Of a stretch of DNA of 64,000 nucleotides, positions 15,396 through 57,677 are shown in pieces. The notes under the pieces were generated by a model. It was given only the letters and a program-made list of their open reading frames with translations. It searched no databases and had not been told where the DNA came from. Made by a program: the position numbers and the translations under genes. Location of the stretch: the NCBI GenBank assembly GCA_045597865.1, contig JAZLKX010000057.1, positions 1-64,000 on the forward strand. The letters run 5' to 3'. The DNA is from Bacilli bacterium. GTDB taxonomy: Bacteria; Bacillota_I; Bacilli_A; RFN20; CAG-826. Each line of letters opens with the position of its first letter. The stretch's first letter is position 1.

Positions 15396-16020
15396 TTACC
15401 AAGAACAATTCTATTCTGATAAAGTAAAACTCATCGTCGGAGTTGATGAAGCTGGAAGAGGTCCTTTGGCAGGACCGGTTGTTGCAGCAGCTTGTATTCT
15501 CCCGCGCGCGTATATAAATAAAGAAATAAACGACTCAAAACAACTTAGTGAAAAGAAACGCGAAGAACTTTTTGAAATAATTAAAAAAGATGCAATCGCC
15601 TATGGCGTTGGCATTGTCTCAGCTGAAGAAATTGACAATCTTAATATTTATGAAGCTACAAAAAAAGCCATGAAAATGGCGATTGATAATTTAAAACACG
15701 AGTATGATTTAATTTTAACTGACGCTATGCCATTAAAAGGATTTGATGTTGAAGTTGTCCCTATTATCAAGGGTGACGCAAAAGCTCTTCCAATTGCTGC
15801 AGCATCAATTATCGCAAAAGTTACACGTGATCATATGATGCTTGAATTAGGTGCTAAATATCCTGAATATGGATTTGAAATTCATAAAGGCTATGGCACA
15901 GCAAAGCATATGGAAGCTTTAAAGAAATTTGGCCCAATAAATGGAGTCCATCGTTTTTCATATAAACCTGTAATGAAAGTTTCTTTACAGGAAATGGATA
16001 TTTTTGATCTAAAAAACTAA
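15388..16020 (+). CDS. rnhB: Ribonuclease HII
   Basis: GVDEAGRGPLAGPVVAA, DSKQL, KGD, AASIIAKVTRD, HKGYGT; ATG 15388. Confidence 0.97.
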   Translation: MLDYQEQFYSDKVKLIVGVDEAGRGPLAGPVVAAACILPRAYINKEINDSKQLSEKKREELFEIIKKDAIAYGVGIVSAEEIDNLNIYEATKKAMKMAIDNLKHEYDLILTDAMPLKGFDVEVVPIIKGDAKALPIAAASIIAKVTRDHMMLELGAKYPEYGFEIHKGYGTAKHMEALKKFGPINGVHRFSYKPVMKVSLQEMDIFDLKN

Positions 16021-16078
16021 GTCATTAATGACTTAAAAAAATTTTTATCGGAAACGCACTTTTCCGCGGAAATATTAA
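16018..16078 (+). promoter_or_regulatory. Putative competence-regulon element upstream of dprA (palindrome plus TTTTATCGG-N18-AAATAnTAA)
   Basis: TAAGTCA-ttaa-TGACTTA (16018-16035), TTTTATCGG (16043-16051), AAATATTAA (16070-16078); same architecture at 57598-57658. Confidence 0.65.
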
Positions 16079-16093
16079 GTAGAGGTACTTTTT

Positions 16094-16894
16094 ATGGAAG
16101 CTAGAGAAGTTTTAATTTATTTATCAACAATTTACAAAGGTGACTGGAACAAAATTTTTGAAGCTATTTTTACTAAAAAACCAATTGATGAAAAGGAAAT
16201 TAAAGAAGTAATTAAAAATCAAAAGTCTAAAGCTGTAACTTGTTTAGATGACGATTATCCTCAACAATTAAAACCAATTCAAAAACCGCCATTTGTACTT
16301 TTTTATCATGGAGATCTTTCTATTATAAAAGACAAACATAAAGCAATTTCTGTTGTTGGAAGTCGCAAAAACACAAAATATGGTGAAGAAGTTACTACAA
16401 ATTTAGTCAAAGATTTATGTAAAGAACTAGTAATTGTTTCAGGCATGGCGCGCGGTATTGATGGCATTGCGCATCGAGTGTGTATCGCTAACGGAGGAAA
16501 AAGTGTAGCGGTTCTTGGATGTGGTATTAATGTTTGTTACCCTCCAAGCAATCTAGATATTTATGATGAGATGAAGAAACATCACTTAATTTTATCTGAG
16601 TATCCAGATTTAACTGAACCATGTCCAATTTATTTCCCAATTAGAAATAGAATTATTGCTGCATTATCTGATTGTTTACTCGTTACAGAAGGCCTTATGA
16701 ACTCAGGAACATCAATAACTGCATCTTTAACATTAGAAAATGGCGGAAATGTGTGTTGTGTTCCTACTCATATAGGTGAAAATTCTGTATGTAATCATCT
16801 AATCTCGTATGGAGCAGCCTTGGTAGAAACAGCAGAAGATATCTATTACGAAATGGATTATCGCAAGAATGAAACTGCTTTCGAAAAAATATAA
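16094..16894 (+). CDS. dprA: DNA processing protein DprA (Smf)
   Basis: YPQQL--I-PPFVLFY-G, VVGSRK, VSGMARGIDG-AH, VLGCGI, SEYP, FPIRNRIIA, SGTSITA; upstream of topA. Confidence 0.95.
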   Translation: MEAREVLIYLSTIYKGDWNKIFEAIFTKKPIDEKEIKEVIKNQKSKAVTCLDDDYPQQLKPIQKPPFVLFYHGDLSIIKDKHKAISVVGSRKNTKYGEEVTTNLVKDLCKELVIVSGMARGIDGIAHRVCIANGGKSVAVLGCGINVCYPPSNLDIYDEMKKHHLILSEYPDLTEPCPIYFPIRNRIIAALSDCLLVTEGLMNSGTSITASLTLENGGNVCCVPTHIGENSVCNHLISYGAALVETAEDIYYEMDYRKNETAFEKI

Positions 16895-16989
16895 AATTTT
16901 GTTAAAGAATATATCTATATCTTTAATATAAATAAAAGGGAAATTAGGCTTTGACTTATGAGTTTGAAATGCCTATATTATATGGACTT

Positions 16990-19053
16990 ATGAAGTTAGT
17001 TATTGTCGAATCTCCAAATAAATGTCACACCATCTCCCGTTACTTAGGAGAAGGCTATCAAGTTCTTGCTACAGTCGGACATTTAAGAGATCTTTCCACT
17101 AGTGGAAAAGGTGGCTTTGGAGTAGATATTGAAAATGATTTTAAACCTACATATGTTGTTTCTAGTTCAAAAAGATCAACAGTTTATGAATTAAAAGAAG
17201 CTGCGCGTAAGGCAGAAGAAATCTATCTTGCAACCGACCCTGACCGTGAAGGTGAAGCTATTGCATGGCATCTTACCCAAATTTTAGGTTTGGACCCAAA
17301 GACAACCAAGCGTTTAGAGTTCCACGAAATCACAAGGGTTTCAATCAATGCAGCTATCAAAAAACCTAGAGTAATTGATATGAATCTTGTGGAATCACAA
17401 GAAACAAGAAGAATTATGGATAGAATTATTGGATTTAGACTTTCCAATATTATCCAAAAAAAGATTAAATCTCCATCCGCTGGAAGAGTTCAATCCGCAA
17501 CACTCAAATTAATCTGTGATCACGACCAAGAAATTGCTGATTTTAAACCAGAACCTTATTGGACTTTATCATTAGAATTAAAGAAAAGTAATGCAAAAAT
17601 CGCTGCAAATTTCGCATCTTTTGGTGATGTGAAGAAAATTGAAGATGAAAAGACTAATGCTGACATTGTTTCTAAACTTAATGGAAATGCGAAAGTTGTC
17701 TCTATTAAAAAGTCAGTTAGAACAACCGAATCTAAACCAGCGTTTACTACCTCAACTCTTCAACAAGAAGCATTCAATACATACAAATTTTCAACAAAGA
17801 AGACTTCTAGTCTTGCTCAACAATTGTATGAAGGCGTTCAAATTAAAGGTGAACACACAGGTTTAATCACATACATCCGTACAGATTCAACTTATTTATC
17901 AGATACATTTGTTGAAAGAGCAGAAGCATTTATTGCAAAGAAATTTGGTCCAGAATACTGTGGTAAACGCAAAGTTGTCGCAGTTGCTGGTGCACAAAAT
18001 GCACATGAAGCTATTAGACCAACTTCAAATCATACAACTCCTGAATCAGTTCGCGCATACCTTACGCCTGATCAATATAAGTTATATAAATTGATTTATG
18101 AGAGAGCCGTTGGCTCACTCATGGCTCCTAAGAAAGAGTCAGTTCAAGTTGTAACTTTTGGTGTAAATGGAGTTACATTTAAAGCTGAAGCAGCACAAGT
18201 CGTTTTTGATGGTTATACAAAACTCGGTTCATCCGAAAAAGAAGAAGCCTATCACTTCCCAGCATTAACTGAAGGTGAAGAAGTTAAGATTAACAAAGTT
18301 AATAATGAACAAAAGATGACTGAAGCTCCAGCTGCTTATACTGAAGCTAAGATTGTTAAACTTATGGAAGACAAAAAGATTGGTCGTCCATCAACTTATG
18401 CTTCAACAATTGCAACATTACTTAAAAGAGAATACGTTGCTTCTAAATCTGGCTCATTAACTTCTACTGAAGTTGGCCAAAGAACAACAACAGTTCTCCA
18501 TAAATATTTCCCAGACTTTGTAGATGTTAAATATACAGCTCAAATGGAAGAAAAACTCGACCAAATCCAAGAAGGTGAAGTTTCAAGAACTGAAGCATTA
18601 ACTGAATTCTACTATCCATTTATTAAGTCAGTTGAAGATGCATCTGCAAAAATGTATAAAGATGATGACGAACCAACTGGTCGTAATTGTCCAATCTGTG
18701 GAGCACCGCTTGTTTACAAGAAATCCAAATACGGAAATTTCATTGGATGTTCAAATTTCCCAACCTGTAAATACAGAGAAAAAGAGGAAGAAGAACTCGA
18801 ATACACCGGTGAAATGTGTCCAAAATGTGGCAAACCTCTCGTCTATAGAGTTGGTAAAAAGAATAAAAAATTCATTGCATGTTCTGGTTATCCAGAATGT
18901 GATTATGTAAAGAAGGAAGAATCTGAACTAGAAGTAGTGAAGAAATGTCCTGAATGTGGTGGAGATCTTGTTGTTAGAGGTCGCGGAAAGAAAAAATTCT
19001 TAGGTTGTACAAACTATCCAAAATGTCATCACATTGAAAAATTAGATAATTAA
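16990..19053 (+). CDS. topA: DNA topoisomerase I with three C-terminal zinc ribbons
   Basis: LVIVESP-K, ATDPDREGEAIAWH, SAGRVQS, LITYIRTDS, AHEAIRPT, IGRPSTYA; ATG 16990 follows TTGACT-N17-TATATT. Confidence 0.97.
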   Translation: MKLVIVESPNKCHTISRYLGEGYQVLATVGHLRDLSTSGKGGFGVDIENDFKPTYVVSSSKRSTVYELKEAARKAEEIYLATDPDREGEAIAWHLTQILGLDPKTTKRLEFHEITRVSINAAIKKPRVIDMNLVESQETRRIMDRIIGFRLSNIIQKKIKSPSAGRVQSATLKLICDHDQEIADFKPEPYWTLSLELKKSNAKIAANFASFGDVKKIEDEKTNADIVSKLNGNAKVVSIKKSVRTTESKPAFTTSTLQQEAFNTYKFSTKKTSSLAQQLYEGVQIKGEHTGLITYIRTDSTYLSDTFVERAEAFIAKKFGPEYCGKRKVVAVAGAQNAHEAIRPTSNHTTPESVRAYLTPDQYKLYKLIYERAVGSLMAPKKESVQVVTFGVNGVTFKAEAAQVVFDGYTKLGSSEKEEAYHFPALTEGEEVKINKVNNEQKMTEAPAAYTEAKIVKLMEDKKIGRPSTYASTIATLLKREYVASKSGSLTSTEVGQRTTTVLHKYFPDFVDVKYTAQMEEKLDQIQEGEVSRTEALTEFYYPFIKSVEDASAKMYKDDDEPTGRNCPICGAPLVYKKSKYGNFIGCSNFPTCKYREKEEEELEYTGEMCPKCGKPLVYRVGKKNKKFIACSGYPECDYVKKEESELEVVKKCPECGGDLVVRGRGKKKFLGCTNYPKCHHIEKLDN

Positions 19054-19084
19054 GTAAGCTATGTGCTTACTTTTTTGTTATAAT
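19054..19084 (+). terminator. topA terminator fused to the extended -10 promoter of trmFO
   Basis: GTAAGC-tatgt-GCTTAC-TTTTTT running directly into TGTTATAAT, 7 nt before ATG 19092. Confidence 0.7.
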
Positions 19085-19091
19085 AATTCGC

Positions 19092-20381
19092 ATGAAGAAA
19101 ATTAACATAGTTGGTGGTGGACTTGCAGGTGCAGAAGCCTGTTACTTTTTCCTAAAAAGAAACTACGAAGTTCACCTCTATGAGAAGCGCCCAAAAGTAA
19201 TGACTCCAGCACATGTTACTGGTAATTTTGGAGAACTCGTTTGTTCCAATTCTCTGAAGTCTAACAAACTTGATAATGCATGCGGATTGCTCAAGGAAGA
19301 AATGCGCCACATGGACTCATTAACTATGAAAGTTGCAGCTGAAACAAGTGTTCCGTCTGGTAATGCTTTAAGCGTAGATCGTGAGGCTTTTTCAACAAAA
19401 ATCACGCAAATTCTCAAGGATTTTCCAAATTTAATCATTCATGAAGAGGATGTCAAAGACTTCCTTGAAGGACCTACTATTATCGCGACCGGCCCGCTTA
19501 CAAGTGATGCGCTCGCAAAGAAAATTTCTGAAACAATTGGTCAAGAATCTTTGTTCTTCTTTGATGCATCTGCACCTATTGTTTTGAAGGATTCTATAGA
19601 CATGAATATCGCCTATAAAAAGTCACGTTATGACCAAGGCGATGACAGCTACATTAACTGTCCATTTTCAGAAGAACAATATGATAAATTCTATGATGAA
19701 CTTATTCATGCTGAAGTAGCAATGATTCATGACTTTGATAAAAACTATTTTGAAGGTTGTATGCCAATTGAAGTAATGGCGAAACGCGGAAAAGAAACTT
19801 TAAGATTTGGACCAATGAAACCAAAAGGTCTCCAAGTTCCAACTAGAGAAAAATTCCACGCCGTTATTCAACTTAGACAAGATAATCTTAATGGAGATTT
19901 ATATAACATTGTTGGGTTCCAAACTAACTTAACTTATTCAGAACAGAAGCGTGTTTTTAGAATGATTCCAGGTTTAGAACATGCTGAGTTTGTACGCTAT
20001 GGTCTTATGCATCGTAACACTTATGTGTGTTCACCGATTGCATTAAATACAGATTTTTCTTTAAGAAAGAAAGATAACGCATTTTTAGCAGGTCAACTTA
20101 TTGGAGTTGAAGGCTATGTGGAGTCTGCTGCTATGGGTATTTTGGCGGCGGTTTTCGCATTCCAAAGAATGGAGAATGTCGAAATACAAAAACCGCCATT
20201 AGAGAGTATTATTGGCTCTTTGTATAACTACGTTATTAATGGAAATCCCGAGACATTCCAACCAATGAATGCTAACTTTGGAATTTTATATGATTCAAAT
20301 AAACATAATCGTGAAGAATCAATAAATAAATCTTTAGATTTAATCGATAAGTATTGGAGCAAAATTAATGAAAGAAATTGA
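19092..20381 (+). CDS. trmFO: tRNA m5U54 methyltransferase TrmFO (Gid)
   Basis: GGGLAGAE, ELVCSNSL, FFDASAPIV, FEGCMPIE, VGFQTNL, RYG-MHRNT, GVEGYVESAA, FQPMNANFG. Confidence 0.96.
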   Translation: MKKINIVGGGLAGAEACYFFLKRNYEVHLYEKRPKVMTPAHVTGNFGELVCSNSLKSNKLDNACGLLKEEMRHMDSLTMKVAAETSVPSGNALSVDREAFSTKITQILKDFPNLIIHEEDVKDFLEGPTIIATGPLTSDALAKKISETIGQESLFFFDASAPIVLKDSIDMNIAYKKSRYDQGDDSYINCPFSEEQYDKFYDELIHAEVAMIHDFDKNYFEGCMPIEVMAKRGKETLRFGPMKPKGLQVPTREKFHAVIQLRQDNLNGDLYNIVGFQTNLTYSEQKRVFRMIPGLEHAEFVRYGLMHRNTYVCSPIALNTDFSLRKKDNAFLAGQLIGVEGYVESAAMGILAAVFAFQRMENVEIQKPPLESIIGSLYNYVINGNPETFQPMNANFGILYDSNKHNREESINKSLDLIDKYWSKINERN

Positions 20382-21279
20382 TTTATTTATTGAACATCTT
20401 CACTATGATTTGAATTATTCTGATAAGACAATCAAGTCATATAAAAATGATATTGAAAGTTTTCTTTTCTTTATTTTTAATCAAGGTATCTCCATTGATG
20501 ATGTCGATACCCAAACAATAAGAAATTATCTTTATACAGAAATGCAGAATGGCAAATCTAAGACAACTTGTTGTCATAGAATTGCGGTTTTAAGGCATTT
20601 CTTTGATTTCTTATTAGATAAGGAATTTATACACGAAAATTGCTTCTTATTTATAACTGCGCCAAAGAAAGATGTTAGGTATCCAGATGTTTTATATTTA
20701 GAACAAGTCGAAACTTTGCTAAATAGAAATAGATTAAGAACTGATAGCCTTATGTTACGCGATCAAGCAATCCTTGAACTTCTTTATGCTTCAGGTCTTC
20801 GTGTTAGTGAACTAGTTAATGTCAAGCTATCAAATATGGACATTAGAAATAGAACAATTCGTGTGCTTGGCAAAGGAAGAAAAGAAAGACTTGTAATGTT
20901 TTCAAAATCTTGCCAAACAACACTTATCGACTATTTAAAAAATAGTCGTGAAGAATTATTAAGAAGAAATAAAAGCGATTTTTCGCTTGATTTTCTCTTC
21001 TTAAATTCTCAAGGAAAGCAACTCTCTAGTAGAGGTGTTCAATACATTCTTGAAGATATCGAAAACAAGACTGGATGTCATTATGGTTTACATCCGCACT
21101 TACTTAGACACACCTTTGCAACACACTTACTTGAGGGCGGTGCAGATCTACGTGTTATTCAAGAACTTTTGGGTCACGAATCTATCAACACAACACAGAT
21201 TTATACTCATGTTACTGAAGAAGCAATGAAGGCCCAATTTAACATGTCTCATCCACGTGCTAAAAAGCACGATAATTGA
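20368..21279 (+). CDS. xerC: Tyrosine recombinase XerC (CodV-like)
   Basis: [54 protein letters not shown], HPRA; topA-trmFO-xerC synteny. Confidence 0.9.
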   Translation: [303 protein letters not shown]

Positions 21280-21371
21280 TACTATTTTTGCATAGTTTAT
21301 AAAAACTATTTGTTTTATTAATGCTGGAGTGTTAGAATACTAACGCTCTTTTTCTTTAGAGAAAGAGAAAT

Positions 21372-21450
21372 ACACACATCATGAATTCAATTTCCGAGTC
21401 CCGTGACCACGGGGTCGAAAACGGGGGAGATTGTTCGAAGTGATGGAGGC
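21372..21450 (+). promoter_or_regulatory. Putative S2 (rpsB) autoregulatory leader RNA
   Basis: Long structured 5' UTR, ACACACATCA...TGATGGAGG with internal hairpin CCCGTGACCACGGG, downstream of TGTTAGAAT; resembles Firmicutes rpsB leader ends. Confidence 0.55.
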
Positions 21451-21473
21451 AAAAACGAATGGAGGCCAAAATT

Positions 21474-22559
21474 ATGGCAGAAGAAAAGAAAGTCGAAGCA
21501 CCAGTAGCTGATGCTGAGAACGTCATGGAAATGGTAATGCATGACGAAAACGCACCAATCATTACCGTCAGAAAATTACTCGAAGGTGGAGTCCACTTCG
21601 GACATCACACCAGAAAATGGAATCCAAAAATGGGCAAGTACATCTACGGTGCTCGTAATGGAATCTATTTAATTGACTTAGTCAAATCTGCAGCATGCAT
21701 TTCAGAAGCATATGTTGCATTAAAGAAAATCGTTGAAGAAAACGGTAAAGTCTTATTTGTTGGTATTAAACCACAAGCAAAAGAACTCGTCGAAGCTCAA
21801 GCAGTTCGTTCAGGTTCATTCTACATCACCAATCGTTGGTTAGGTGGTACCTTAACAAACTTCAAGACAATTCAATCAAGAATTCGTCGTTTAAAAGAAC
21901 TCGAAACAATGGAAATTGATGGTTCATTTGATCGTCTTCCAAAGAAAGAAGTTGCTCTTTTAAAGAAAGAAGCTGACAAACTCGCAAAGAACCTTAACGG
22001 TATTAAGGAAATGAGAAAGATTCCTAACGCAGTTGTCGTTTGTGATCCAATGCTTGAACACAACGCAGTTGCAGAAGCAAAGAAACTCGGAATCCCAGTA
22101 TTCGGTATCTGTGATACCAACTCCGATCCAGACAGAGTTGACTTTGTTATCCCAGGAAACGATGACGCACTTCGTTCACTCAAGGTTTTAGTTACAGTCT
22201 TAGCAGACGCAGTTGTCGAAGCAAAAGGTGGTATCACCGAAGTTGCATATACTAAAGATGAATTAGAAGAAGCAACAATGAAAGACGCTGTCCGTTTAGC
22301 AGACAAAGAAAATGCTGAAAGAATTGCAGCAATTCGTAAAGCTCGTGCTGAAAAGCAAGAAAGATTCGAAAAAGCACAACAATTCAGAAAGCAAAGAGAA
22401 GAAGCAAAAGCTGCTAAAGCAGAAGCTCCAAAAGCAGAAGCGCCAGCAGAAGAAGCAAAAGCTGAAGTAAAAGAAGAAAAACCAGCTGAAGAAAAGAAAG
22501 CCCCAGCAAAGAAAGCTCCAGCAAAAAAGGCTCCAGCAAAGAAAGCTGAGGAAAAATAA
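21474..22559 (+). CDS. rpsB: 30S ribosomal protein S2 with N- and long C-terminal extensions
   Basis: GVHFGH-T-KWNPKM, RWLGGTLTNF-TI, DTNSDP, IPGNDDA; SD GGAGG before ATG 21474. Confidence 0.97.
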   Translation: MAEEKKVEAPVADAENVMEMVMHDENAPIITVRKLLEGGVHFGHHTRKWNPKMGKYIYGARNGIYLIDLVKSAACISEAYVALKKIVEENGKVLFVGIKPQAKELVEAQAVRSGSFYITNRWLGGTLTNFKTIQSRIRRLKELETMEIDGSFDRLPKKEVALLKKEADKLAKNLNGIKEMRKIPNAVVVCDPMLEHNAVAEAKKLGIPVFGICDTNSDPDRVDFVIPGNDDALRSLKVLVTVLADAVVEAKGGITEVAYTKDELEEATMKDAVRLADKENAERIAAIRKARAEKQERFEKAQQFRKQREEAKAAKAEAPKAEAPAEEAKAEVKEEKPAEEKKAPAKKAPAKKAPAKKAEEK

Positions 22560-22561
22560 TT

Positions 22562-23428: not shown

Positions 23429-23443
23429 TTTGAAAGGAGCCTT

Positions 23444-50890: not shown

Positions 50891-50892
50891 TA

Positions 50893-50920: not shown

Positions 50921-50930
50921 ATTTATTAAA

Positions 50931-51004
50931 TGGAGCAGCTGGCGGGAATCGGACCCGTATAGCCACCTTGGCAAGGTGGTGTTCTACCACTGAACTACAG
51001 CTGC
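50931..51004 (-). tRNA. tRNA-Gly(GCC) with atypical T-arm
   Basis: Minus strand GCAGCTG...CCACC-ttGCCaa-GGTGG...ACGGG-TCCGATT-CCCGC-CAGCTGC-TCCA. Confidence 0.88.
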
Positions 51005-51064
51005 ATTTCAGCGTGATTATTTTATAATAAGTGTTATAATACTTCAAGCGAAATTAAAATTATT

Positions 51065-52720
51065 ATGAAAACTTACGAAGATTTAGCAAATTACATATTC
51101 CCAGAAATCAACGAAACAATTGCTGATTTAGAAAAGAAATATCCAGCCAGAAATTTACCAGAGGGCGCAGAAGTCACAAGATTCGCACCATCTCCAACTG
51201 GATTTTTACACTTAGGCTCATTATTCACTTCTTTGGTTGCTCATAAAGTAGCAAAAGACACAGGCGGTGTTTTCTATTTAAGACTTGAAGACACAGATAC
51301 AAAACGTGAAGTTGAAGGTAGTGGCGACGAACTTGTTCGACAACTTGCTCATTTTGGCATCGATCCAAAAGAAGGCTACCTTGGTCATGATGTTGGACCA
51401 TATGCTCCATATAAACAATCTAATCGCGCGTACATATATAAGGTATGTATTAAGGAATTAATGAAGAAGGGTAGAGCATATCCTTGCTTCTGCAGTGCTG
51501 AACAACTTGAAGAAACAAGACAAATTCAAGAAGCAATGAAAATGATTCCTGGTTACTATGGCGAATACGCAATCTGCCGTACAAATACTCCAGATGAAGC
51601 AATTGCACGTATTGAAGCTGGTGAACCTTATGTTATTCGTTTTAAATCAATGGGTAACCACAACAATAAAGTAACATTCCATGATGAAGTTCGTGGCGAT
51701 ATTTCAATTGCTGAGAACGATATGGACATTGTTATTCTTAAATCTGATGGACTTCCAACCTATCACTTTGCACACGCTGTTGATGATCATTTTATGCATA
51801 CAACAACTGTCATTCGTGGTGAAGAATGGATCTCATCAGCCCCAATACATATCGAATTATTTGAGACTTTAGGCTTTAAATTACCTAAGTACGCTCACTT
51901 ACCAGTTATCATGAAACTTGATAATGGAAATAAACGTAAACTTTCAAAGAGAAAAGATCCAGAAGCATCTGTTTCACACTTTATTGAAGAAGGCTATCCA
52001 AGAGAAGCTTTGCTCGTTTACTTAATGAGTATTGCAAACTCCAATTTTGAAGAATGGACTGCCGAAAATCATTCATTCAATCTAGATGAATTCAAGTTCT
52101 CTTTCGATAAAATGTCCCTAGACGGTGTTCTTTTTGACCAAGATAAGCTTAATTTCTTCTCAAAGGAAATCATTGCTAAAATGTCTAATCAAGAAGTCTA
52201 TAACAGAGTCTATGAATGGGCAGATGATGAATTCAAAGCTAAATTAGAAAAGTACAAAGAAGAATCTCTTGCAGCATTAAATATTGAACGTGGTGGTGAA
52301 AAAGCACGTAAGGATTATGCTGCATATAAAGATGTCTATCCTATTATTTCCTTATTCTATAAAGAAGATAACGAAAAAGAATTTAGTGAAATCGGTTGCC
52401 AATTTAAACCAGAAATTCCTAGTGATGTTGTAAAAGCTGTGCTCGAAGACTTTAAGAAATCAAATGACTATTCACTTGCAAATGATGTTTGGTTCAATAC
52501 AGTTAAAGAATTAGGTGCTAGACATAAATTTGCTGAAAGTGGTAAAATTTTCAAGCAAAATCCTGAAGCATATGTTGGACACGTTGGTGATGTTGCAGAA
52601 ATTATCCGTGTTGCAATTACATGTAGAAAGAATACTCCTAATCTTCACGATGTCTTAGTTATTCTGGGCAAAGATGAAGTTGATAGAAGAATTGATCGCG
52701 CTATAGCATCAATTAAATAA
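51065..52720 (+). CDS. gltX: Glutamate--tRNA ligase
   Basis: TRFAPSPTGFLHLG (HIGH), RLEDTD, AYPCFC, KSDG-PTYHFA-VDD, IRGEEW, KLSKR (KMSKS). Confidence 0.95.
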   Translation: MKTYEDLANYIFPEINETIADLEKKYPARNLPEGAEVTRFAPSPTGFLHLGSLFTSLVAHKVAKDTGGVFYLRLEDTDTKREVEGSGDELVRQLAHFGIDPKEGYLGHDVGPYAPYKQSNRAYIYKVCIKELMKKGRAYPCFCSAEQLEETRQIQEAMKMIPGYYGEYAICRTNTPDEAIARIEAGEPYVIRFKSMGNHNNKVTFHDEVRGDISIAENDMDIVILKSDGLPTYHFAHAVDDHFMHTTTVIRGEEWISSAPIHIELFETLGFKLPKYAHLPVIMKLDNGNKRKLSKRKDPEASVSHFIEEGYPREALLVYLMSIANSNFEEWTAENHSFNLDEFKFSFDKMSLDGVLFDQDKLNFFSKEIIAKMSNQEVYNRVYEWADDEFKAKLEKYKEESLAALNIERGGEKARKDYAAYKDVYPIISLFYKEDNEKEFSEIGCQFKPEIPSDVVKAVLEDFKKSNDYSLANDVWFNTVKELGARHKFAESGKIFKQNPEAYVGHVGDVAEIIRVAITCRKNTPNLHDVLVILGKDEVDRRIDRAIASIK

Positions 52721-52735
52721 GGGCATTGCCCTTCT

Positions 52736-52811
52736 GGCCCCATGGTCAAGCGGTTCAAGACGCAACCCTCTCAAGGTTGAATCAAGGGTTCGATTCCCTT
52801 TGGGGTCACCA
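52736..52811 (+). tRNA. tRNA-Glu(CTC)
   Basis: CAACC-ctCTCaa-GGTTG; acceptor GGCCCCA/TGGGGTC; ACCA end. Confidence 0.92.
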
Positions 52812-52891
52812 ATTAAAAAAAATAGAACTCTCTTTTGAGAGTTTTTATTTTATTCAGTTGAAATATAATTATTTCTTTATATAATAAAGAT

Positions 52892-53524
52892 ATGGAATAC
52901 GAAGAATTATTTATTCAAATACTTGATAATGATGAAAAAATCATCGATACGTTTAAACCAAAGCATAAAAGATTTGTTGGTTTAACAATTTTGAGAAATT
53001 TGATTGCAAGCTTACTTGTACTCATTTTTCCTGCAGTTTTTGTTGTTGCTTCAATTGCACTTAATAATGGCATCGATGAAACTACTCAATGTGAAATTAA
53101 TGGAGTAGCAGCTACTGGAGAGGACTGTAAGGCAGGGCTTGGAGTTTTCATTATCATCCCTTGCATCATAGCTGGCTTAGTTGTTTTAGGTTTTCTTTTC
53201 TCTGTTATTGCAAGAATTGTAGTTTATAAAAAGACTTGTTACTGCTGCACAAATAAAAGAATCATAATTCGTCGCGGTTTCATCGGCGCTGATTATCAAA
53301 CATTGGATTATGACCTTATTGGAGGCATGGATGTTAGAGTCGATTTTTTCGACAAAATTATGAAACCAAATACTGGAACAATTTCATTTGCATCTGCTGC
53401 TTCTCCAATGATTGATAAACAAGGTCCTTCATATTATTTTGCACACATCGAAAACCCATACGAAACATATAAAAAAATTAAGGAATATTCATCAACTTAC
53501 CGAGACGGAAAATTGAATAGTTAG
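52892..53524 (+). CDS. Two-TM bacterial PH-domain (bPH_2) protein
   Basis: L--DE-I---KP, two TMs, Y-TNKRIIIRRGFIG, GTI-F, F-HI-NPY. Confidence 0.75.
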   Translation: MEYEELFIQILDNDEKIIDTFKPKHKRFVGLTILRNLIASLLVLIFPAVFVVASIALNNGIDETTQCEINGVAATGEDCKAGLGVFIIIPCIIAGLVVLGFLFSVIARIVVYKKTCYCCTNKRIIIRRGFIGADYQTLDYDLIGGMDVRVDFFDKIMKPNTGTISFASAASPMIDKQGPSYYFAHIENPYETYKKIKEYSSTYRDGKLNS

Positions 53525-53527
53525 TTT

Positions 53528-54388
53528 ATGAAAGCGATCTATCTTTGTTCAAATAAAACAGGCATTAAAAAGTCGGAAAAGAAGACCGCTTTTATTTTTG
53601 ATTCGCTCCATAAAATATATAAAGATTTAACAATTGTAAAAACTGAAAATATTGAGGATTTTGAGGAAAATATTCGCAAATCTGTGGGTATTTTTGATAT
53701 TGTGATTGTTGGTGGTGGAGACGGAACACTTAAAGCTGCAGTCAATGTTTTGATGGAATTTTCGAAAGAAGAAAGACCAGTGTTAGGATATCTTCCACTA
53801 GGTACCATTAACGACGCCGGAAAGGCTGTTGGAATTAACGGAAGTTTACGCAAGGCTCTTAAGATTTTAGAAGAAAATTCGATAATAGAAGTTGATGTCT
53901 GCAAAGTTAATGATGAATACTTTAATTTTGTGTGTGCTGCTGGAGCTTATTCGGACATTTCTTATGTCACAAAAAGAAGAGCTAAAAAAATTATAGGAAA
54001 ATTTGCTTATTATTTTGTTGCAATTGCTTCACTTTTTAAAAAGAAAAAACTTGATGTTCATGTAGTCGCAGATAACCAAATTATTGATATGAAAACACCA
54101 TTAGTTTTAATTATGAATTCGAAAAATGTTGGCGGTTTTCCAGTTAATTTCAATTATTCAGTAGTCGATGGAAAGGTTGAAATTTACCTGACAAAACCTG
54201 GTCTTTTTAATGGATTATTGCATTATGCTTTCTTCAAAATGAGAACAATAAAACTAAAAGCTTCTCACTTAAAAGTGTCGATTAAATCGAATGAAACTTG
54301 GTGTTTGGATGGCGAAAAAGGTTTTAATGGCGACATTGAAATCAATGTAATTCAACGAGAACTCCGAATGGTTGGCAAATTAAAATAA
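53528..54388 (+). CDS. Diacylglycerol/sphingosine kinase family lipid kinase (YegS/DgkB-like)
   Basis: GGDGT, LGYLPLGTIND, F---AG, G-AY, DG, LDGE. Confidence 0.88.
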   Translation: MKAIYLCSNKTGIKKSEKKTAFIFDSLHKIYKDLTIVKTENIEDFEENIRKSVGIFDIVIVGGGDGTLKAAVNVLMEFSKEERPVLGYLPLGTINDAGKAVGINGSLRKALKILEENSIIEVDVCKVNDEYFNFVCAAGAYSDISYVTKRRAKKIIGKFAYYFVAIASLFKKKKLDVHVVADNQIIDMKTPLVLIMNSKNVGGFPVNFNYSVVDGKVEIYLTKPGLFNGLLHYAFFKMRTIKLKASHLKVSIKSNETWCLDGEKGFNGDIEINVIQRELRMVGKLK

Positions 54389-54452
54389 TTTAATTTTTTG
54401 CTTTTCATTTTAACAATATTATTATATTATTAACGCAGTAGGCGGAAGTTTT

Positions 54453-55319
54453 ATGAAATTCAAAAAACCAAGAGGATTACTATTAGGAATCGGATTCAGC
54501 GCATTTGCTATCGCTGTAATTTTGTTCTTTTTAGTCCCAGTATTTTTTAAGGATTTTCAATACAATGCTTTAGAAGCGATTTTAGGCGGACTTAAGGGAT
54601 TAGTATCTTTTAATTTTGCCAACGTTCTCTATACAGCTTTATTTGTTTTGTTTGTCCTTGCTTTAGCATCTGTTGTGATTTATGCAATTACTGCAGTTCA
54701 AAAGAAACATAAAATCCATCTTCTTATTGCCGCATTTTCATTAATTTTCGTTTTTGGTTCCTACTTAGGTATTTCTATTTACTTCTTAGGAAGTGATATT
54801 GCTTTTGGTGGAAAAATCACCAGTTCAACTAATTCTTTACTTTCTTTAATGTTAGTTTCAGAAAATGTTGGAGGTAAGATTTTATCCTCCTTTATCTTAG
54901 CATTAGTTGTTCTTTCAAATGTAATGCTCATTGTTCATATGTTTGTTGCATTGATTTCAATGATGGTTACTGAAGAAATTATTAATTTCGAAGCTAAATG
55001 TGAAGAAGAAACTCAAAAAGCTATTGAAGAAAAAACTGCCGAGATTGTTGCAAGCCAAGCAGCTGCTGAATCAGCTCCTGCATTTGCAACTGTATTGGCA
55101 CCAGAAGTAGAAGCCGATCTTGAAGAACGCAAACGCAAGGAAATGGCGTTCTTTAAAGAATGCTTAGATTCAGGTTATTTTACTGAATATGAAGAAATTG
55201 AATTCCCAGAGCCAATTGAAGGCGTTGAGGAAGAACCTGTGTGCGAAGCCAGTGTCATCGAAGAAAGAACCGCATTTATTTCTAGAACTAGTGTACACGT
55301 TGGCTATACACACGATTAA
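54453..55319 (+). CDS. Hypothetical four-TM membrane protein with acidic tail
   Basis: Four hydrophobic segments, then an E/A-rich C-terminus. Confidence 0.7.
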   Translation: MKFKKPRGLLLGIGFSAFAIAVILFFLVPVFFKDFQYNALEAILGGLKGLVSFNFANVLYTALFVLFVLALASVVIYAITAVQKKHKIHLLIAAFSLIFVFGSYLGISIYFLGSDIAFGGKITSSTNSLLSLMLVSENVGGKILSSFILALVVLSNVMLIVHMFVALISMMVTEEIINFEAKCEEETQKAIEEKTAEIVASQAAAESAPAFATVLAPEVEADLEERKRKEMAFFKECLDSGYFTEYEEIEFPEPIEGVEEEPVCEASVIEERTAFISRTSVHVGYTHD

Positions 55320-55377
55320 GTTGTTTTATTATAACTCTTAGAGTTATTTTAAAAATAAATATTTTGGAGGGCTTTAT

Positions 55378-56973
55378 ATGAAAAAAGCTAAAAACGCATT
55401 TGCGATAATTGGTATTGTATTAGCAGTTGTCGCAGCCGCATTACTAATGTTACATCCAGTAATAGACGGATTAAGCGCTGTCATGTTCCCAGACGGGAAA
55501 CCAGGACTACCATTTGATCAATATTTTTCAATGGTAGGTGGCAGAGTCCAGAAACTTTGGGATTTTTCATGGTTTAGTGCATTCAGTCTTGAAGCATTAA
55601 AATCAAATTTCCCATTCATTGTTTGTGTTGTTGGTCTTGTCTTGTTTGTAGCATTCCTTATCATCATGATTTGCAAGAAACACTTTAAAGGATTTGGTTG
55701 GTTTGTACCAATGCTTGTTTTATTCCTTTTATCAATTGTTGTTTCCTCAGTTTACGTTAATCCTGGTGATCCATCATTCTTTAACGAATACAAACCATTA
55801 ACTGAAGCTGGCGAAGGTTATGGTTTAATTCAAGTTTCCGAAAACTTATTCTTAACCCAAATCTTAGTTTATGTTGGATTAGTATGTGCAATTATTGCTG
55901 CAGCAATGTTCATAGTTGCATTAATTTTCTACATCATTTATGTTTGTGGTGAAGAAAGAGAAGAGGAAGCTGAAGAACCTGCTATTGAACCAAGTCAACC
56001 AGTCAGAGCAGCTGCTGAAGCAGCACCTGCACCAGTTGCCGTTCAATCAGCAATCGTTCCTGCACAAAAACCAGCAGCATCAGCTACAGTCGCAGCCGCA
56101 CCAGCAGCATCAGCTACAGTCGCAGCCGCACCAGCTCCTGCAAAAGAAGAAGCTCCAGCCGAAGATAACGCCAAGGTTATTAGACGCATTCTTGTTCATA
56201 AGAGTGGTAAAGTTGTCAGAGTTCTTAATGAACATTACTATGACATTACTACTAACGTATTTGTTGACCAAGGTTACTATGATCCAAATAGACCAGCTGA
56301 AACCGAACAACAACATTACGAAAGACTTATTAATGAAGCAAAAACTGTTTTACAACCAGCACCAGCTCCTGTTGTTGCTCCAGCACCAGCTCCAGCTCCA
56401 GTTATCGTTGTAACTCAACCACAACCACAAGTTGTTGTTGCACCAGCACCAGCTCCTGTTGTTGCTCCAGCACCAGCACCAGCTCCAGTCGTTGCTCCAG
56501 CACCAGCACCAGCTCCTGTTGTTGCACCAGCTCCAGTTGTTGTTGCTGCACCAGCACCAGCAAAAGAGAAAGTCGAACGTATTCCATTTACTGATCGTAT
56601 GAAACATGCTGAAAAAGCATTAAAATTCGCTTACAACGAAATTAAGAGTGAAATCTTATCATATGGTCTTAAATCACGTGTTTCTATCGCAGGTGATACA
56701 TTCAGACTTCATACAAAGACATATGTCATGCTTGTTGTTGCAGGTAAGAGCTTAAAACTCTACTTTGCTTTGGATCCAAAGGATTATAAAGATTCCAAGA
56801 TGCCACTTGGTGATGCATCCAAGAAAGTCCTCCATAAAGATACACCTCTTGTATTCAAAGTTAAGTCAGACTTATCAGTTCGTAGATGTAAACAACTTAT
56901 CGCTGATTGTTGTGCTAAAGACGGTCTTGAAAAAGGCGAATTTGTCAAACACGATCACGTTAAGGATTTATAA
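55378..56973 (+). CDS. Four-TM membrane protein with Ala/Pro-rich linkers and a C-terminal globular domain
   Basis: SD GGAGG; four TMs; (VV)APAPAP repeats; basic ~130-aa C-terminal domain. Confidence 0.8.
56071..56135 (+). repeat. Perfect in-frame 30-bp tandem duplication
   Basis: CCAGCAGCATCAGCTACAGTCGCAGCCGCA x2 ([10 protein letters not shown]). Confidence 0.95.
56356..56561 (+). repeat. Degenerate coding tandem repeat ([10 protein letters not shown])n
   Basis: Recurring GTTGTTGC(T/A)CCAGCACCAGC units. Confidence 0.9.
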
Positions 56974-56989
56974 TCTTTATTTAAAATTT

Positions 56990-57015
56990 AAAGGTGACCT
57001 TCGGGCCACCTTTTT
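56990..57015. terminator. Bidirectional terminator
   Basis: AAAGGTGACC-ttcg-GGCCACCTTTTT. Confidence 0.8.
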
Positions 57016-57550
57016 ATTTACTCAATTTTTCTTTGTATAACTTATATATTAAGTCACTTGTTTCTTCAATTGACTTGTTTTCAGTTTTGATTATAAAATC
57101 AACTTTTCCAATCTTCTCCAATGAGAAGTCATCAACATCATTTTTAAGACGTTTCGCAATATTTTCTTGTTTGTCTCCACGAGAAACCATGCGTTCGTGT
57201 CTTGTTTTTTCATCTGCAATTAAAAGAAATGAAACTATGTGTTTATTATTTAATTTTAAGAATGAATGAAGACCATTTGGATCAAGCACGACAATTTTAT
57301 TGTCATCAACTTGATCAATGCCGCATCCATAGTAATTTTCATTGTATAGTGAATGCTCTACAAATTTTCCTTCATTTAAACGTTTTGTAAATTCTTCTTT
57401 GCTAATAAAAAAATATTCAACGCCATCAGTTTCGCCGACTCGTTTTTCACGTGTTGTAGTTGTGATTGCTTTAACCAAGCCATGACGTTTTTGTAAATCA
57501 AGGGCTGTAACTGTTTTTCCGCTTGCAGAAGCACCGACTAATAAAATCAT
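57014..57550 (-). CDS. gmk: Guanylate kinase
   Basis: GASASGKT, TTR-R-GE-DGV-YFF, F-E----Y-N-YG; TATAAT 7 nt before the ATG. Confidence 0.9.
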   Translation of the reverse strand: MILLVGASASGKTVTALDLQKRHGLVKAITTTTREKRVGETDGVEYFFISKEEFTKRLNEGKFVEHSLYNENYYGCGIDQVDDNKIVVLDPNGLHSFLKLNNKHIVSFLLIADEKTRHERMVSRGDKQENIAKRLKNDVDDFSLEKIGKVDFIIKTENKSIEETSDLIYKLYKEKLSK

Positions 57551-57597
57551 AGAAAATATTATACTCGAAATAATAAATAAAAAATTGGCAAAAAAAG

Positions 57598-57658
57598 AGA
57601 CTTATTTATAAGTCTAAAAATATTTTATCGGTTTTCCAAAAATCACTGTAAATAGTAA
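57598..57658 (+). promoter_or_regulatory. Putative competence-regulon element upstream of the Tad-like operon
   Basis: AGACTTA-ttta-TAAGTCT (57598-57615), TTTTATCGG (57623-57631), N18, AAATAGTAA (57650-57658); in register with the dprA element. Confidence 0.65.
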
Positions 57659-57677
57659 TTGAGAGGAGAAAAATTAT

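Follow-up and report, generated by a model that had tools for sequence, protein, structure and literature searches.

A candidate promoter module of a competence regulon, spelled differently among related small-genome gut Bacilli

A two-box module lies upstream of dprA and of a pilus-like operon in the window (the whole stretch of DNA analysed, 64,000 nucleotides from an uncultured Bacilli bacterium represented solely by metagenome assemblies, genome G000), and copies precede further DNA-uptake and recombination genes elsewhere in the genome; the observation is real and larger than first described. The best explanation overall, which we consider probable, is that the module is the core promoter of a competence regulon in uncultured small-genome gut Bacilli, and that explanation includes, with about an even chance of being right, a mechanism in which p106, the first gene product of the pilus-like operon, reads the promoter. 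These sequence data suggest that natural transformation is switched on here in a manner not described before. To our knowledge, competence control is understood in detail only for a few cultured models (ComK, ComX, SigH, TfoX/Sxy). Small-genome gut Bacilli of this group are abundant in animal and human guts, and for this large group of uncultured organisms a testable, complete regulon map is obtained from sequence alone. No description of this system was found in the main texts of the open literature searched on RF39/Enteromonas competence and on MG284/MPN403.

The module and its copies in one genome

The regions upstream of dprA and of the pilus-like operon are identical at 43 of 70 positions without gaps (16011-16080 against 57591-57660), a figure of the original prediction that was confirmed by recounting; random 70-mer pairs from the window share 19.1 +/- 3.9 identities, and a fraction of 5e-5 of 20,000 such pairs reaches 43. 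The layout described earlier is likewise present at both loci, in the order A-run, 18-bp palindrome, A5-7, TTTTATCGG, 18-nt spacer, AAATA(T/G)TAA, GAGG-type ribosome-binding site (RBS) and ATG. At both loci TTTTATCGG begins 25 bp past the start of the palindrome (16043 and 57623), and the ATG follows the module at 16094 (dprA) and 57678 (pilus-like operon). The window holds two matches to TTTATCGG-N16-20-AAATA where 0.02 would be expected, and 0 of 100 shuffles reach two. The features of the two loci are as follows.

16018..16035, + strand: palindrome or hairpin TAAGTCA-ttaa-TGACTTA, with A-runs on either side; overlaps the rnhB stop codon and ends 8 nt before the box
16036..16043, + strand: A/T tract A6-T2 between hairpin and box, in what would be an UP-element-like position
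16044..16051, + strand: box 1, TTTATCGG, -35-like; the hexamer TATCGG occupies -35 to -30 if the transcript starts at 16081
16069..16078, + strand: box 2, gAAATATTAA, -10-like, with the core KAAATW at 16069-16074
16081, + strand: predicted start of transcription, at +38 relative to the box and coinciding with the first base of the AGAGG RBS
16094..16894, + strand: dprA, 266 aa (DNA_processg_A); topA, trmFO/gid-like and xerC-like genes come next
57598..57615, + strand: palindrome or hairpin AGACTTA-ttta-TAAGTCT, with A-runs on either side, in a divergent intergenic region
57624..57631, + strand: box 1, TTTATCGG, from motif scans
57649..57658, + strand: box 2, tAAATAGTAA, from motif scans
57661, + strand: predicted transcription start, +38, at the GAGAGGAG RBS
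57678..57998, + strand: p106, a 106-aa protein of the MG284/MPN403 family with a predicted sigma region-4-like fold (NF045770; AlphaFold; Foldseek)

DprA is a PF02481 match (E 7.5e-64, window 16094-16891). A guanylate-kinase-like gene on the - strand lies upstream of the palindrome at 57598..57615.

Throughout the 1.74-Mb genome, TTTATCGG-N18-AAATA occurs seven times, with a spacer of 18 every time, against about 0.1 expected (20 first-order Markov genomes, mean 0.1, maximum 1). A 52-nt weight matrix built from eight copies returned 13 sites scoring 29-63 and none between 18 and 29; the first eight match by construction, and the other five are new. All copies are intergenic and point toward a gene. 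The motif is supported as a promoter-type element defining a competence regulon, because its copies precede dprA, comEA-comEC-holA, recA, radC, the pilus-like operon and, as a weaker 14th copy, comFA-comFC. The genome-wide scan proposed in the original prediction was thus productive at comEA-comEC, recA and radC, less strongly at comFA-comFC, and unproductive at two further candidates: neither of the two ssb copies in the genome has the motif upstream, and coiA was searched for in the genome and not found. The gene set downstream of the copies bears out the predicted competence regulon, and comEC, on whose presence in the genome the claim leaned, was found. Further downstream genes are two ABC exporters, a C39 peptidase, a YhcG nuclease and a lipoprotein-pcrA-ligA unit, and two DhiT-like toxin/HTH (toxin-antitoxin-like) pairs also lie under the motif, with HTH members of Xre type (DUF2442-HTH_3).

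The uptake proteins were assigned by domains and models. ComEA carries SLBB and HHH_3 domains; ComEC matches TIGR00361 (ComEC/Rec2) over residues 93-659 (E 7.5e-47; 159.8 bits, below the curated 190) and has a Lactamase_B domain. ComFA is a 381-aa DEAD/Helicase_C protein with an N-terminal CxxC, and the 238-aa PRTase/ComF-like protein encoded after it matches the ComFC model TIGR00201 (E 9.2e-20, below the curated cut-off).

The geometry of the module is regular. Counted from the first T of the box, an RBS motif begins at +38 to +40 in all 13 sites, the ORF starts at +51 to +55 in nine of the 13, and an A5-N-T3 tract is conserved across all of them. The start codon falls exactly at +38 in three cases, namely comFA of G000 (GTG), comFA of the related genome G008 (ATG) and the lipoprotein gene of G000 (ATG, MRTFYFLLAVPLLLGGC). 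We infer a sigma-70-type promoter geometry, in which TATCGG would be the -35 element and KAAATW the -10 element, separated by 17 nt. At 9/13 sites, unusually for recognition by a housekeeping sigma, the -10-like core lacks the canonical final T. The predicted start of transcription is near +38 (window positions 16081 and 57661), 7 nt after box 2, and such a start would give very short leaders, with leaderless mRNAs for comFA and the lipoprotein gene.

The proposal that the upstream dyad is one common operator did not hold, as its sequence varies from site to site and the half-site order of one window copy is the reverse of that of the other. The palindrome types AAGTCAY-N3-4-RTGACTT and AGACTTA-N4-TAAGTCT each occur in the genome only beside motif copies, at three loci apiece. 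Because the hairpin sequences differ and yet end 8-9 nt before the box in 11-12 of the 13 sites, it is position and structure that are conserved, not sequence.

Conservation of the regulon in related genomes

The search of relatives upheld one half of the expectation raised earlier: the architecture recurs at orthologous promoters; the exact sequence does not, with 0-2 copies, a background level, in each of the other 40 genomes searched. By sequence, the exact motif is private to this species, and the relatives keep the regulon and spell its module differently. The dprA and p106 upstream regions share a genome-specific box in every genome inspected. In G008, TTTCAKCGAAA-N13-CYG has seven sites against none for the control, and these precede an ABC exporter, the p106 operon, the C39 peptidase, orf58-radC, dprA, recA and comFA. 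Seven promoter-like CCCAATAAAGTA sites in G020 lie at the C39 peptidase, comEA-comEC, dprA, an ABC exporter, p106 and two unidentified genes, and CCCAATAAAGTA-type sites in G001 lie at dprA, the C39 peptidase, radC and p106. Both boxes drift among species, not the -35 side alone, and the upstream palindromes are kept in G008 and G017. This is a rare case in which a whole regulon re-spells its promoters between close species with its membership kept, and re-spelling on that scale makes the co-evolution of regulator and site directly testable.

Candidate regulators

p106 is encoded once in G000 and matches NF045770, a C-terminal domain model, at 68.9 bits (cut-off 37.3); the same model matches 26/26 aligned p106 homologues. 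For its AlphaFold model (pLDDT 78, pTM 0.70), the top Foldseek match in the PDB is the -35-binding sigma region 4 of SigL (3hug; target-normalised TM 0.74-0.77, rmsd 1.6-2.6 A), followed by region 4 of FliA, SigK, AlgU and SigE on DNA; the sigma-4 matches have probabilities of 0.93-0.99 but weak E-values of 0.38-5. A sequence-profile search of the PDB with p106 returned nothing relevant, and Sigma70_r4 matches one of the 26 homologues (E 0.044). ArpU matches five of them weakly (best E 8.8e-4); p106 itself falls below the curated cut-offs of the ArpU/RinA model TIGR01637 (18.4 bits, cut-off 43.1) and of DUF1492 (E 0.15), so membership of the ArpU/RinA (Ltr) family is not claimed. The p106 family comprises stand-alone proteins of about 90-135 aa in 812 representative clusters (E<=0.001), with WW...Y-x-K-[ST]-T-[YF]-Y-R-x-R as the most conserved residues; these stay constant while the box changes, and no protein/box covariation is seen in them. 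p106 evolves faster than DprA (identity 65% against 85% in G017, 50% against 75% in G008), and 27 of 28 loci in the genus preserve the order p106, p316/p150, ATPase. Across the wider bacterial family (255 genomes at least 90% complete), NF045770 matches in 107 and an ATPase orthologue is present in 227. Genus g18 has the ATPase in 32/33 genomes and NF045770 in 0/33, and genus g19 has NF045770 in 6/6 and the ATPase in 0/6, so the co-occurrence of p106 and ATPase is not strict at this sensitivity.

p106 is a candidate autoregulated specificity factor for the -35 box, a role to which we give roughly equal chances of being correct and incorrect. The housekeeping sigma would read the -10 side and p106, as a stand-alone sigma region-4-like protein, the species-specific -35 box; being made from its own target promoter, p106 would form a positive feedback switch. 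A stronger version, in which p106 is a free-standing sigma region 4 that takes over -35 recognition on housekeeping-sigma RNA polymerase (a 'split' sigma) and co-evolves with the box, giving each species a private competence promoter code, is put forward tentatively, as a possibility only. Were it true, a single genus would have rewritten this code at all of the regulon's promoters, about 14 in number, a gene arriving from a sister species with its own promoter would stay silent in the competence programme of the recipient, and the MG284/MPN403 proteins of Mycoplasma would be factors of this type. The proposal would introduce a new type of master regulator, a family of about 100 aa with sigma-4-like members in 812 clusters without described function, those of Mycoplasma included, and the promoter/regulator pairs might serve as orthogonal expression switches.

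The alternative sigma factor expected by the original prediction was not found: Sigma70_r2 matches in G000 are rpoD and one phage gp55-like gene, which lies in a phage structural region beside a baseplate-hub gene. The only further genes picked up in G000 by TIGR02937 and Sigma70_r4_2 are ylxM, one ArpU-like gene of a prophage and three small HTH/zinc-ribbon genes, and the three profiles together reveal no MG428-like sigma. The closest relatives with the regulon, G008, G017 and G024, show rpoD only (G008 is 79% and G024 73% complete), and they are among the 15 of 37 genus genomes with a single Sigma70_r2 match. At 96.9% completeness and 5.4% contamination, the G000 assembly may lack a regulator gene. 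The DNA-binding domain of LexA was also searched for and not found.

Against this background, a conventional sigma factor of the ComX, SigH or sigma-20 type, too divergent to be recognised or missing from the assembly, could read both boxes and leave p106 a mere member of the regulon. Known Bacillota competence regulons run on dedicated sigma factors. Both the sigma-70-type geometry (two boxes, a 17-18-nt spacer, a likely start 7 nt past box 2) and the drift of both boxes fit such a factor, as do the N18/19 spacing and very short leaders shared by Mycoplasma genitalium sigma-20 promoters (PMC4446450). The profile searches of G000 and of the three regulon-bearing relatives argue against it, but ComX-like sigmas are hard to detect and two of those relatives are incomplete; we regard this explanation as unlikely. 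The module might instead be the operator of an SOS-like or Xre-type repressor, bound as a dimer on the -35/-10 region or on the palindrome and holding uptake and DNA-repair genes silent in the absence of a signal, with the DUF2442-HTH_3 proteins as candidates. A regulon rich in DNA metabolism (recA, pcrA-ligA, YhcG nuclease, radC), the missing LexA, the confinement of both palindrome types to motif copies, their retention in G008 and G017, and the two Xre-type HTH genes under the motif are in its favour. Yet inspection by eye finds no convincing housekeeping -35/-10 pair beneath the motif that a repressor could cover, and the left/right dyad symmetry of the core looks weak; the palindromes differ among sites, and the half-site order of one main type is the reverse of that of the other, so one dimer cannot read all of them, and the A/T tract at the UP-element position and the fixed RBS distance fit a promoter better than an operator. 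A repressor is judged improbable.

Least credible, and in our estimation very improbable, is that the copies are a dispersed repeat, such as a miniature mobile element or a cassette spread by gene conversion, and share no regulatory role. In favour of this, they resemble one another closely over a length of about 90 bp, even in the spacer, which is nearly identical in three of them, and they confuse assembly graphs: contigs from one DNA run leap from the promoter of p106 into the leader of comEA. However, 13 of 13 copies are intergenic and gene-directed with an RBS at +38 to +40, the downstream gene set is functionally coherent, orthologous genes bear the module in species that spell it differently, and neither target-site duplications nor terminal repeats were seen by eye.

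The pilus-like operon and comparison with known systems

Reading the module as a competence promoter would connect the uptake of DNA with a Tad-like machine instead of ComG. After p106, the pilus-like operon continues as follows.

57995..58945, + strand: p316, secreted or lipoprotein-like, with an N-terminal signal peptide; no family match
58902..59354, + strand: p150, opening with a hydrophobic helix ahead of a soluble domain, which by eye looks pilin-like; no family match
59341..60300, + strand: secretion ATPase (T2SSE) of the VirB11/FlaI/CpaF branch, the genome's sole T2SSE gene above the family cut-off
60302..61006, + strand: p234, a membrane protein with a weak single T2SSF-like domain (TadB/TadC-like; E 0.7)
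61003..61671, + strand: p222, a putative platform protein with one T2SSF-family domain (TadB/TadC-like; E 0.087 over profile positions 8-123 of 125)
61661..62002, + strand: p113, small, opening with a hydrophobic helix and by eye resembling TadE or a pseudopilin; no family match
61968..62216, + strand: p82, a small hydrophobic pilin candidate with a likely start MSEVKG at 62016 and a weak DUF6112 match; lacks the Flp motif

The ATPase matches T2SSE at E 4.7e-22. Its best partial NCBIfam matches, all below cut-offs, are VirB11 (127 bits) and the TadA-family ATPase (118 bits), and in the PDB it matches an archaeal GspE-like protein (1.5e-16), VirB11 (1e-15), FlaI (1e-11), CpaF (3e-11) and PilB/PilT (about 1e-6). 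A genome scan with PF00482 (T2SSF) gave nothing above cut-off; the nearest Atlas clusters of p222 belong to the T2SSF family (score 0.97). No operon protein has a Pfam match to a Flp-family pilin, even at E<=5, and p82 reads MSEVKG/TLLTI..., without the EY of the Flp motif G/XXXXEY. An A24 prepilin peptidase (TadV/CpaA, PF01478) has no match at E<=0.1 in the 96.9%-complete genome, and no TadZ-like gene was recognised. The machine is Tad-like but incomplete by known markers: of the Tad/Flp pilus originally proposed, the grouping of the ATPase with VirB11/FlaI/CpaF and the two single-domain T2SSF-like proteins would fit, and the Flp pilin and A24 peptidase were not found. A ComG-type competence pilus was rejected, given a ComGA model score of 61 bits against a cut-off of 300, a single T2SSE gene and no T2SSF match above cut-off.

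In the streptococcal ComX (SigX) late-competence regulon, the cin-box marks dprA, comEA/EC, comFA/FC, cinA-recA, radC and the uptake pilus operon. The present regulon resembles it in placing one short promoter signature over comparable uptake and recombination genes, in carrying exporter and peptidase genes along, and in including recA, which, there being no LexA, falls to the competence regulon in ComX streptococci and here alike. It differs in its box (TTTATCGG-N18-AAATA as opposed to the cin-box TACGAATA at -10), in that no ComX-like sigma was found, in a pilus machine that is not ComG, and in a motif re-spelled between species of one genus. A ComX/cin-box or SigH-type regulon was set aside, with no dedicated sigma-70-family factor found and no cin-box or SigH -35/-10 in the 13 aligned sites. 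Comparison by eye agrees with the earlier statement that the motif is unlike the cin-box, ComK, SigH and sigma-20 boxes, the last taken from PMC4446450.

Sigma-20 (MG428) is a recombination regulator in M. genitalium and M. pneumoniae (PMC4446450; PMC6105099), and its consensus differs between these sister species (TTGTCA...ATTWAT against TTGGCR...ATTYAT; PMC4446450). Shared with the present case are a small-genome Bacilli relative as host, two boxes at N18/19, a very short distance to the ATG and recA as a target (PMC4446450). In contrast, the regulator described there belongs to the sigma-70 family, of which no such gene was found here, and the targets described there are recombination genes, not an uptake machine (PMC4446450). 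A sigma-20 regulon was rejected, since the motif differs from TTGTCA-N18/19-ATTWAT and no MG428-like sigma was found; only spacing and short leaders are alike. The family of p106 bears Mycoplasma protein names (MG284/MPN403), and the main text of PMC4446450 mentions neither 'MG284' nor 'MPN403'.

The closest described relatives of p106, distant ones by sequence, are the ArpU/RinA late activators. The Ltr superfamily of phage late activators includes RinA, ArpU, LtrA (Sigma70_r4), LtrB (DUF1492) and LtrC (PMC3753634). As described in that source, these are small stand-alone proteins of about 100-140 aa, some with sigma region-4 similarity; they are specific for cognate promoters, are the sole factor needed to switch on a long operon, and are encoded directly upstream of the operon that they control, as p106 is placed. 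However, the Ltr activators are encoded by phages and work through 7-nt direct repeats at a single terS promoter (PMC3753634), whereas p106 is chromosomal, kept across a bacterial family and linked to about 14 dispersed promoters.

Transformation dependent on Tad (Flp, type IVc) pili is described for Micrococcus luteus (PMC4322843) and Liberibacter crescens (PMC8513845), and the combination of comEA/comEC with a Tad-type machine, not ComG or type IVa, would be common to both and to the present case. A CpaF/VirB11/FlaI-branch ATPase and two separate, putative single-domain platform proteins would be further Tad-like traits. Unlike the Tad transformers, the host here is a wall-reduced Bacilli relative, and only here would the machine and dprA be co-regulated by way of a promoter that they have in common.

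A promoter module shared by competence genes

The original prediction held that a single layout lies upstream of the ORFs at 16094 (dprA) and 57678 (p106, the 106-aa protein that opens a pilus-like operon), and this was confirmed by inspecting both regions. In each, an A-run is followed by a palindrome of 18 bp (arms of 7 bp) and A5-7. TTTTATCGG starts 25 bp from where the palindrome starts; then come 18 bases that vary, AAATA(T/G)TAA, a ribosome-binding site of GAGG type and an ATG.

Palindromes at the two window sites
16018-16035: 18-bp palindrome upstream of ORF 16094
57598-57615: 18-bp palindrome upstream of ORF 57678

The two regions are identical, without gaps, at 43/70 positions, compared with 19.1 +/- 3.9 for random pairs of 70-mers from the window, and the window has two occurrences of TTTATCGG-N16-20-AAATA where 0.02 would be expected. 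In the assembly of the source genome, G000 (1.74 Mb, 35% G+C, 58 contigs, 96.9% complete, 5.4% contamination), the exact motif was found seven times, always with a spacer of 18 bases, compared with a mean of 0.1 occurrences in Markov-simulated genomes. A 52-nt weight matrix made from these seven sites and one near-copy returned 13 sites scoring 29-63, with nothing between 18 and 29. Variation in the -35-like element (box 1) is confined to the last two letters (TTTATCGG, -GA, -AG, -AC), and in four of the five sites added by the matrix the -10-like element (box 2) reads AAATTATAA(T/G) instead of AAATAKWAA; the spacer is semi-conserved, and an A5-N-T3 tract lies ahead of box 1.

The units downstream of the copies were assigned by Pfam and NCBIfam.

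Units and features at motif copies in G000
58-aa ORF (L001:3055-3228, contig C25), then radC
comEA, comEC and holA
dprA, then topA, a gid/trmFO-like gene and a xerC-like gene
recA, with the motif between a cinA-domain gene and recA
p106 pilus-like operon
two fused ABC/FtsX exporters
390-aa C39 peptidase protein, then ybeY, cdd, era and recO
YhcG/DUF1016 PD-(D/E)XK nuclease
thioredoxin-like lipoprotein, then pcrA and ligA
256-aa protein without known family, then a lipid or teichoic-acid-like gene cluster
L006:3107-3816 (C37) and L005:6797-7521 (C39): two paralogous pairs, DhiT-like (DUF4160) plus DUF2442-HTH_3 (Xre-type)
L005:7693-8841 (C39), opposite strand: IS605-family tnpB (OrfB_IS605 and Cas12f1-like TNB, 382 aa), downstream of the motif copy at C39:62422
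motif copy at C25:98971; downstream of it, on the - strand (L003:8741-9000), 260 nt without an ORF

A degenerate copy, TTTCTCAC-N18-AAATA, precedes comFA-comFC. The original prediction had named matches at other DNA-uptake genes as what would support it, and they were found at comEA, comEC, comFA/C, recA and radC; both copies of ssb lack the motif, and neither coiA nor a prepilin peptidase was found in G000. In streptococci recA belongs to the competence regulon, and G000 is similar in that recA stands under a competence-type motif and no LexA DNA-binding domain was found in the genome. Taken together, the sequences and their comparison bear out the proposed competence regulon under a shared promoter module, and a real regulon marked by a private module is well supported.

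Because the 58-aa ORF before radC is conserved in two relatives (88% identity in G008, 61% in G001), it is probably a real small protein of the regulon, possibly a membrane protein. The DUF4160 protein matches the DhiT-like toxin model NF048015 at E 5.8e-20, below cut-off, and the DUF4160/DUF2442-HTH_3 pairs would form either a feedback regulator or a module of toxin-antitoxin type that is switched on along with competence. One pair is cut from its promoter by the IS605-type insertion, in which tnpB sits immediately behind the ribosome-binding site and keeps the competence-type promoter ~1.4 kb from the gene pair. The C25:98971 copy carries a ribosome-binding-like GAAAGGAG at +40 (counted from the first T of box 1) and no start codon; beyond the ~260 nt without an ORF lie a 133-aa protein without known family and rnhC, and the intervening region may represent a decayed leader or a small RNA. 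At the three sites without a directly following ORF, Rfam returned no known RNA.

In a DNA run, contigs that match the p106 promoter (window 57621 and 57654) lead on to the comEA leader or to a variant box. Through its length and similarity the repeated promoter can join separate parts of an assembly graph, and a strain whose box differs slightly is present alongside.

Promoter geometry and the upstream hairpin

At all 13 sites the ribosome-binding motif begins at +38 to +40, and the ORF start falls at +51 to +55 in nine of them. In three cases the start codon lies exactly at +38, namely the GTG of comFA in G000, the ATG of comFA in G008 and the ATG of the lipoprotein gene. The two comFA N-termini read from these starts are alike from residue 5 onward, and the lipoprotein gene read from its +38 ATG gives a clean lipobox signal peptide. 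The simplest reading of these positions is a transcription start at about +38; the mRNAs would therefore begin at the ribosome-binding site, and those of comFA and the lipoprotein would be leaderless. KAAATW (positions 26-31) would then occupy -12 to -7 and TATCGG (positions 3-8) -35 to -30, with a 17-nt spacer, which suggests a sigma-70-type layout with non-canonical hexamers and the A/T tract at the place of an UP element; this geometry is strongly indicated. Contigs of RNA run X1, which carry neither start nor level information and so weigh neither way, contained 8% of the words of window 55001-63000 and span only ~55.1-57.1 kb and 62.9-63.0 kb of that stretch, with the p106 operon outside.

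Other readings of the motif were judged by eye and rejected. Read as a reverse complement, it would be a SigD/sigma-28 -10 element (CCGATAAA), with the wrong spacing and an orientation against the genes, and a sigma-54 promoter (TGGCA...) would lack its -12 element. If the TATAAT of five sites were a housekeeping -10, the start would fall behind the ribosome-binding site. The left/right inverted repeat within the core is weak, and the direct repeat TTTAYCKG/TTYACCTG, 18 bp apart, is not kept in G008.

RNAfold analysis of the 45 nt upstream of the box predicted a hairpin ending 8-9 nt before it at 12 of the 13 sites, two of them weak; the lipoprotein site has none. The hairpin sequences vary from site to site, and at radC and at the C39 peptidase they are G+C-rich and of the ordinary kind that terminates the upstream gene. 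AGACTTA-N4-TAAGTCT occurs at three sites and AAGTCAY-N3-4-RTGACTT at three, and both types occur nowhere else in the genome; their half-sites stand in opposite order, so that a single dimeric protein could not recognise the two types. Seen from the other strand, each is a hairpin with a T-run behind it and could therefore terminate transcripts that leave the promoter in the reverse direction. Two of these hairpins lie between divergent genes and have no upstream gene to terminate. The hairpin may be an architectural element, may insulate against divergent or antisense transcription, or may bind Xre-type proteins of the regulon itself.

Conservation in relatives and the candidate regulator

TTTATCGG-N18-AAAT occurs 10 times in G000 (reversed control, 3) and 0-2 times in each of 40 other genomes (24 of the same genus, 16 of the same order). 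DprA is present in 36/37 genomes of the genus, always after rnhB, and in every genome inspected the dprA and p106 upstream regions have a common, genome-specific box.

Boxes and sites in relatives
G017 and G024: box TTCAGCGA/TTCATCGA
G008: box TTCAGCGA; sites upstream of the ABC exporter, p106 operon, C39 peptidase, orf58-radC, dprA and recA orthologues and of comFA
G048: box TTTTAGCC
G020: box TTTGGAC; seven promoter-like CCCAATAAAGTA sites, before the C39 peptidase, comEA-comEC, dprA, ABC exporter, p106 and two unidentified genes
G001: sites of the same type at dprA, C39 peptidase, radC and p106
Other genomes have boxes of their own

TTTCAKCGAAA-N13-CYG matched seven times in G008 (control, 0), and DprA of G020 is 50% identical. 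Since orthologous genes carry a different spelling in the relatives, both boxes drift and membership stays constant; judged from these comparisons, the exact motif is private to G000 and the regulon itself is conserved.

The original prediction assigned the promoter to an alternative sigma factor, and no recognisable one was found in G000, where rpoD and a phage gp55-like gene are the only Sigma70_r2 matches (PHROGs: late sigma factor for the latter). The only further matches, to TIGR02937 and Sigma70_r4_2, are ylxM, three small HTH/zinc-ribbon genes and an ArpU-like prophage gene towards the end of C57, the contig of the window.

Sigma- and activator-like genes, p106 and their surroundings
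L014:1381-1980 (C52, ~248.9 kb), - strand: T4 gp55-like late sigma factor, 200 aa (PHROG 234), beside a baseplate-hub gene
C57:80001-86320 (L127), ~20 kb past the window end: prophage-like or integrative island with serine recombinase, tyrosine integrase and KilA/Bro-like protein
C57:85185-85622, within that island: 145-aa sigma region-4/ArpU-like late activator
L128:5329-6603 (C25, ~167-168.6 kb): three adjacent small paralogues, 118-144 aa, with an N-terminal sigma-4/HTH-like motif and C-terminal zinc-ribbon repeats
57678-57998: p106, 106 aa, first gene of the pilus-like operon

Late promoters of the T4 type carry TATAAATA, and four motif sites read TGTAAATA. The gp55-like gene was nonetheless rejected as the regulator: it lies among phage structural genes, and no second Sigma70_r2 gene was found in G008, G017 and G024, rpoD being the only match in 15/37 genomes of the genus, these three included. 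Because it adjoins the baseplate-hub gene, its surroundings are either a phage region of the genome or a phage contig that binning assigned to it. The zinc-ribbon paralogues adjoin methyltransferase and HNH-like genes, and for this reason their region may be a defence or mobile island.

A reasoned candidate for the regulator is p106, which is single-copy in G000, evolves faster than DprA and stands first in the operon with p316, p150 and the ATPase in 27/28 loci of the genus. It matches NCBIfam NF045770 ('MG284/MPN403 family') above cut-off, as do 26/26 aligned homologues; its ArpU and DUF1492 matches are weak. The family is stand-alone (812 representative clusters, about 90-135 aa), and the named members among the close matches are all 'hypothetical protein' of Bacilli MAGs. 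The AlphaFold model has five helices (pLDDT 78), and its best PDB neighbours are sigma region-4 (-35-binding) domains, with Foldseek probabilities of 0.93-0.99 and weak E-values; searching the PDB by sequence profile, with the p106 alignment, yielded coiled-coil noise only. ArpU, RinA and the other Ltr proteins are small phage activators, some sigma-4-like, each specific for its own late promoter (PMC3753634). By analogy with them, p106 would read box 1, housekeeping sigma would read the -10 side, and p106 would feed back on its own promoter, a proposal given about an even chance. Against it, the residues of p106 that are invariant do not follow the changes in the box, and the structural matches are weak. 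Nor do p106 and the ATPase strictly co-occur across the family, and their pairing is not usable as support; at six more remote ATPase loci the ORF that opens the operon matches the p106 profile only at E 0.003-0.03, and divergence may hide homologues. Complex prediction of p106 with a 200-residue RpoB fragment containing the flap tip scored 0.01, which speaks neither for nor against binding.

The G000 regulon is similar in kind to the ComX, SigH and sigma-20 regulons. It differs in its motif, in having no recognisable sigma factor, in its Tad-like machine, in a candidate regulator with sigma-4 only, and in a promoter whose spelling changes between species across the whole regulon.

The pilus-like machine and other window features

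The operon ATPase is the only T2SSE ATPase of the genome, and its nearest relatives are VirB11, archaeal GspE/FlaI and CpaF, with PilB and ComGA far off. It is followed by two separate membrane proteins of about 220-234 aa (p234 and p222) with weak single T2SSF domains, as in the TadB/TadC arrangement of Tad systems, and four small or secreted operon proteins have N-terminal hydrophobic helices. The machine resembles the predicted Tad/Flp pilus in its ATPase branch and, by weak domain matches, in its TadB/TadC-like pair. No Flp-family pilin, A24 peptidase or ComG gene was found in G000; the pilin candidate p82 gave an uninformative best score of 0.75 against Atlas clusters. 'Tad-like' is a fair working name for what may be a Tad machine. 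Relatives of the ATPase, at 48-82% identity, come from MAGs of gut, rumen and faecal origin with the titles 'Bacilli bacterium', 'Candidatus Enteromonas sp.' and 'uncultured Mollicutes bacterium'. The window also holds RNA genes.

RNA genes of the window
1-2217: 23S rRNA gene, 3' two-thirds
2348-2458: 5S rRNA gene
33.5-33.8, 41.0-42.0 and 62.6-62.7 kb: tRNA clusters
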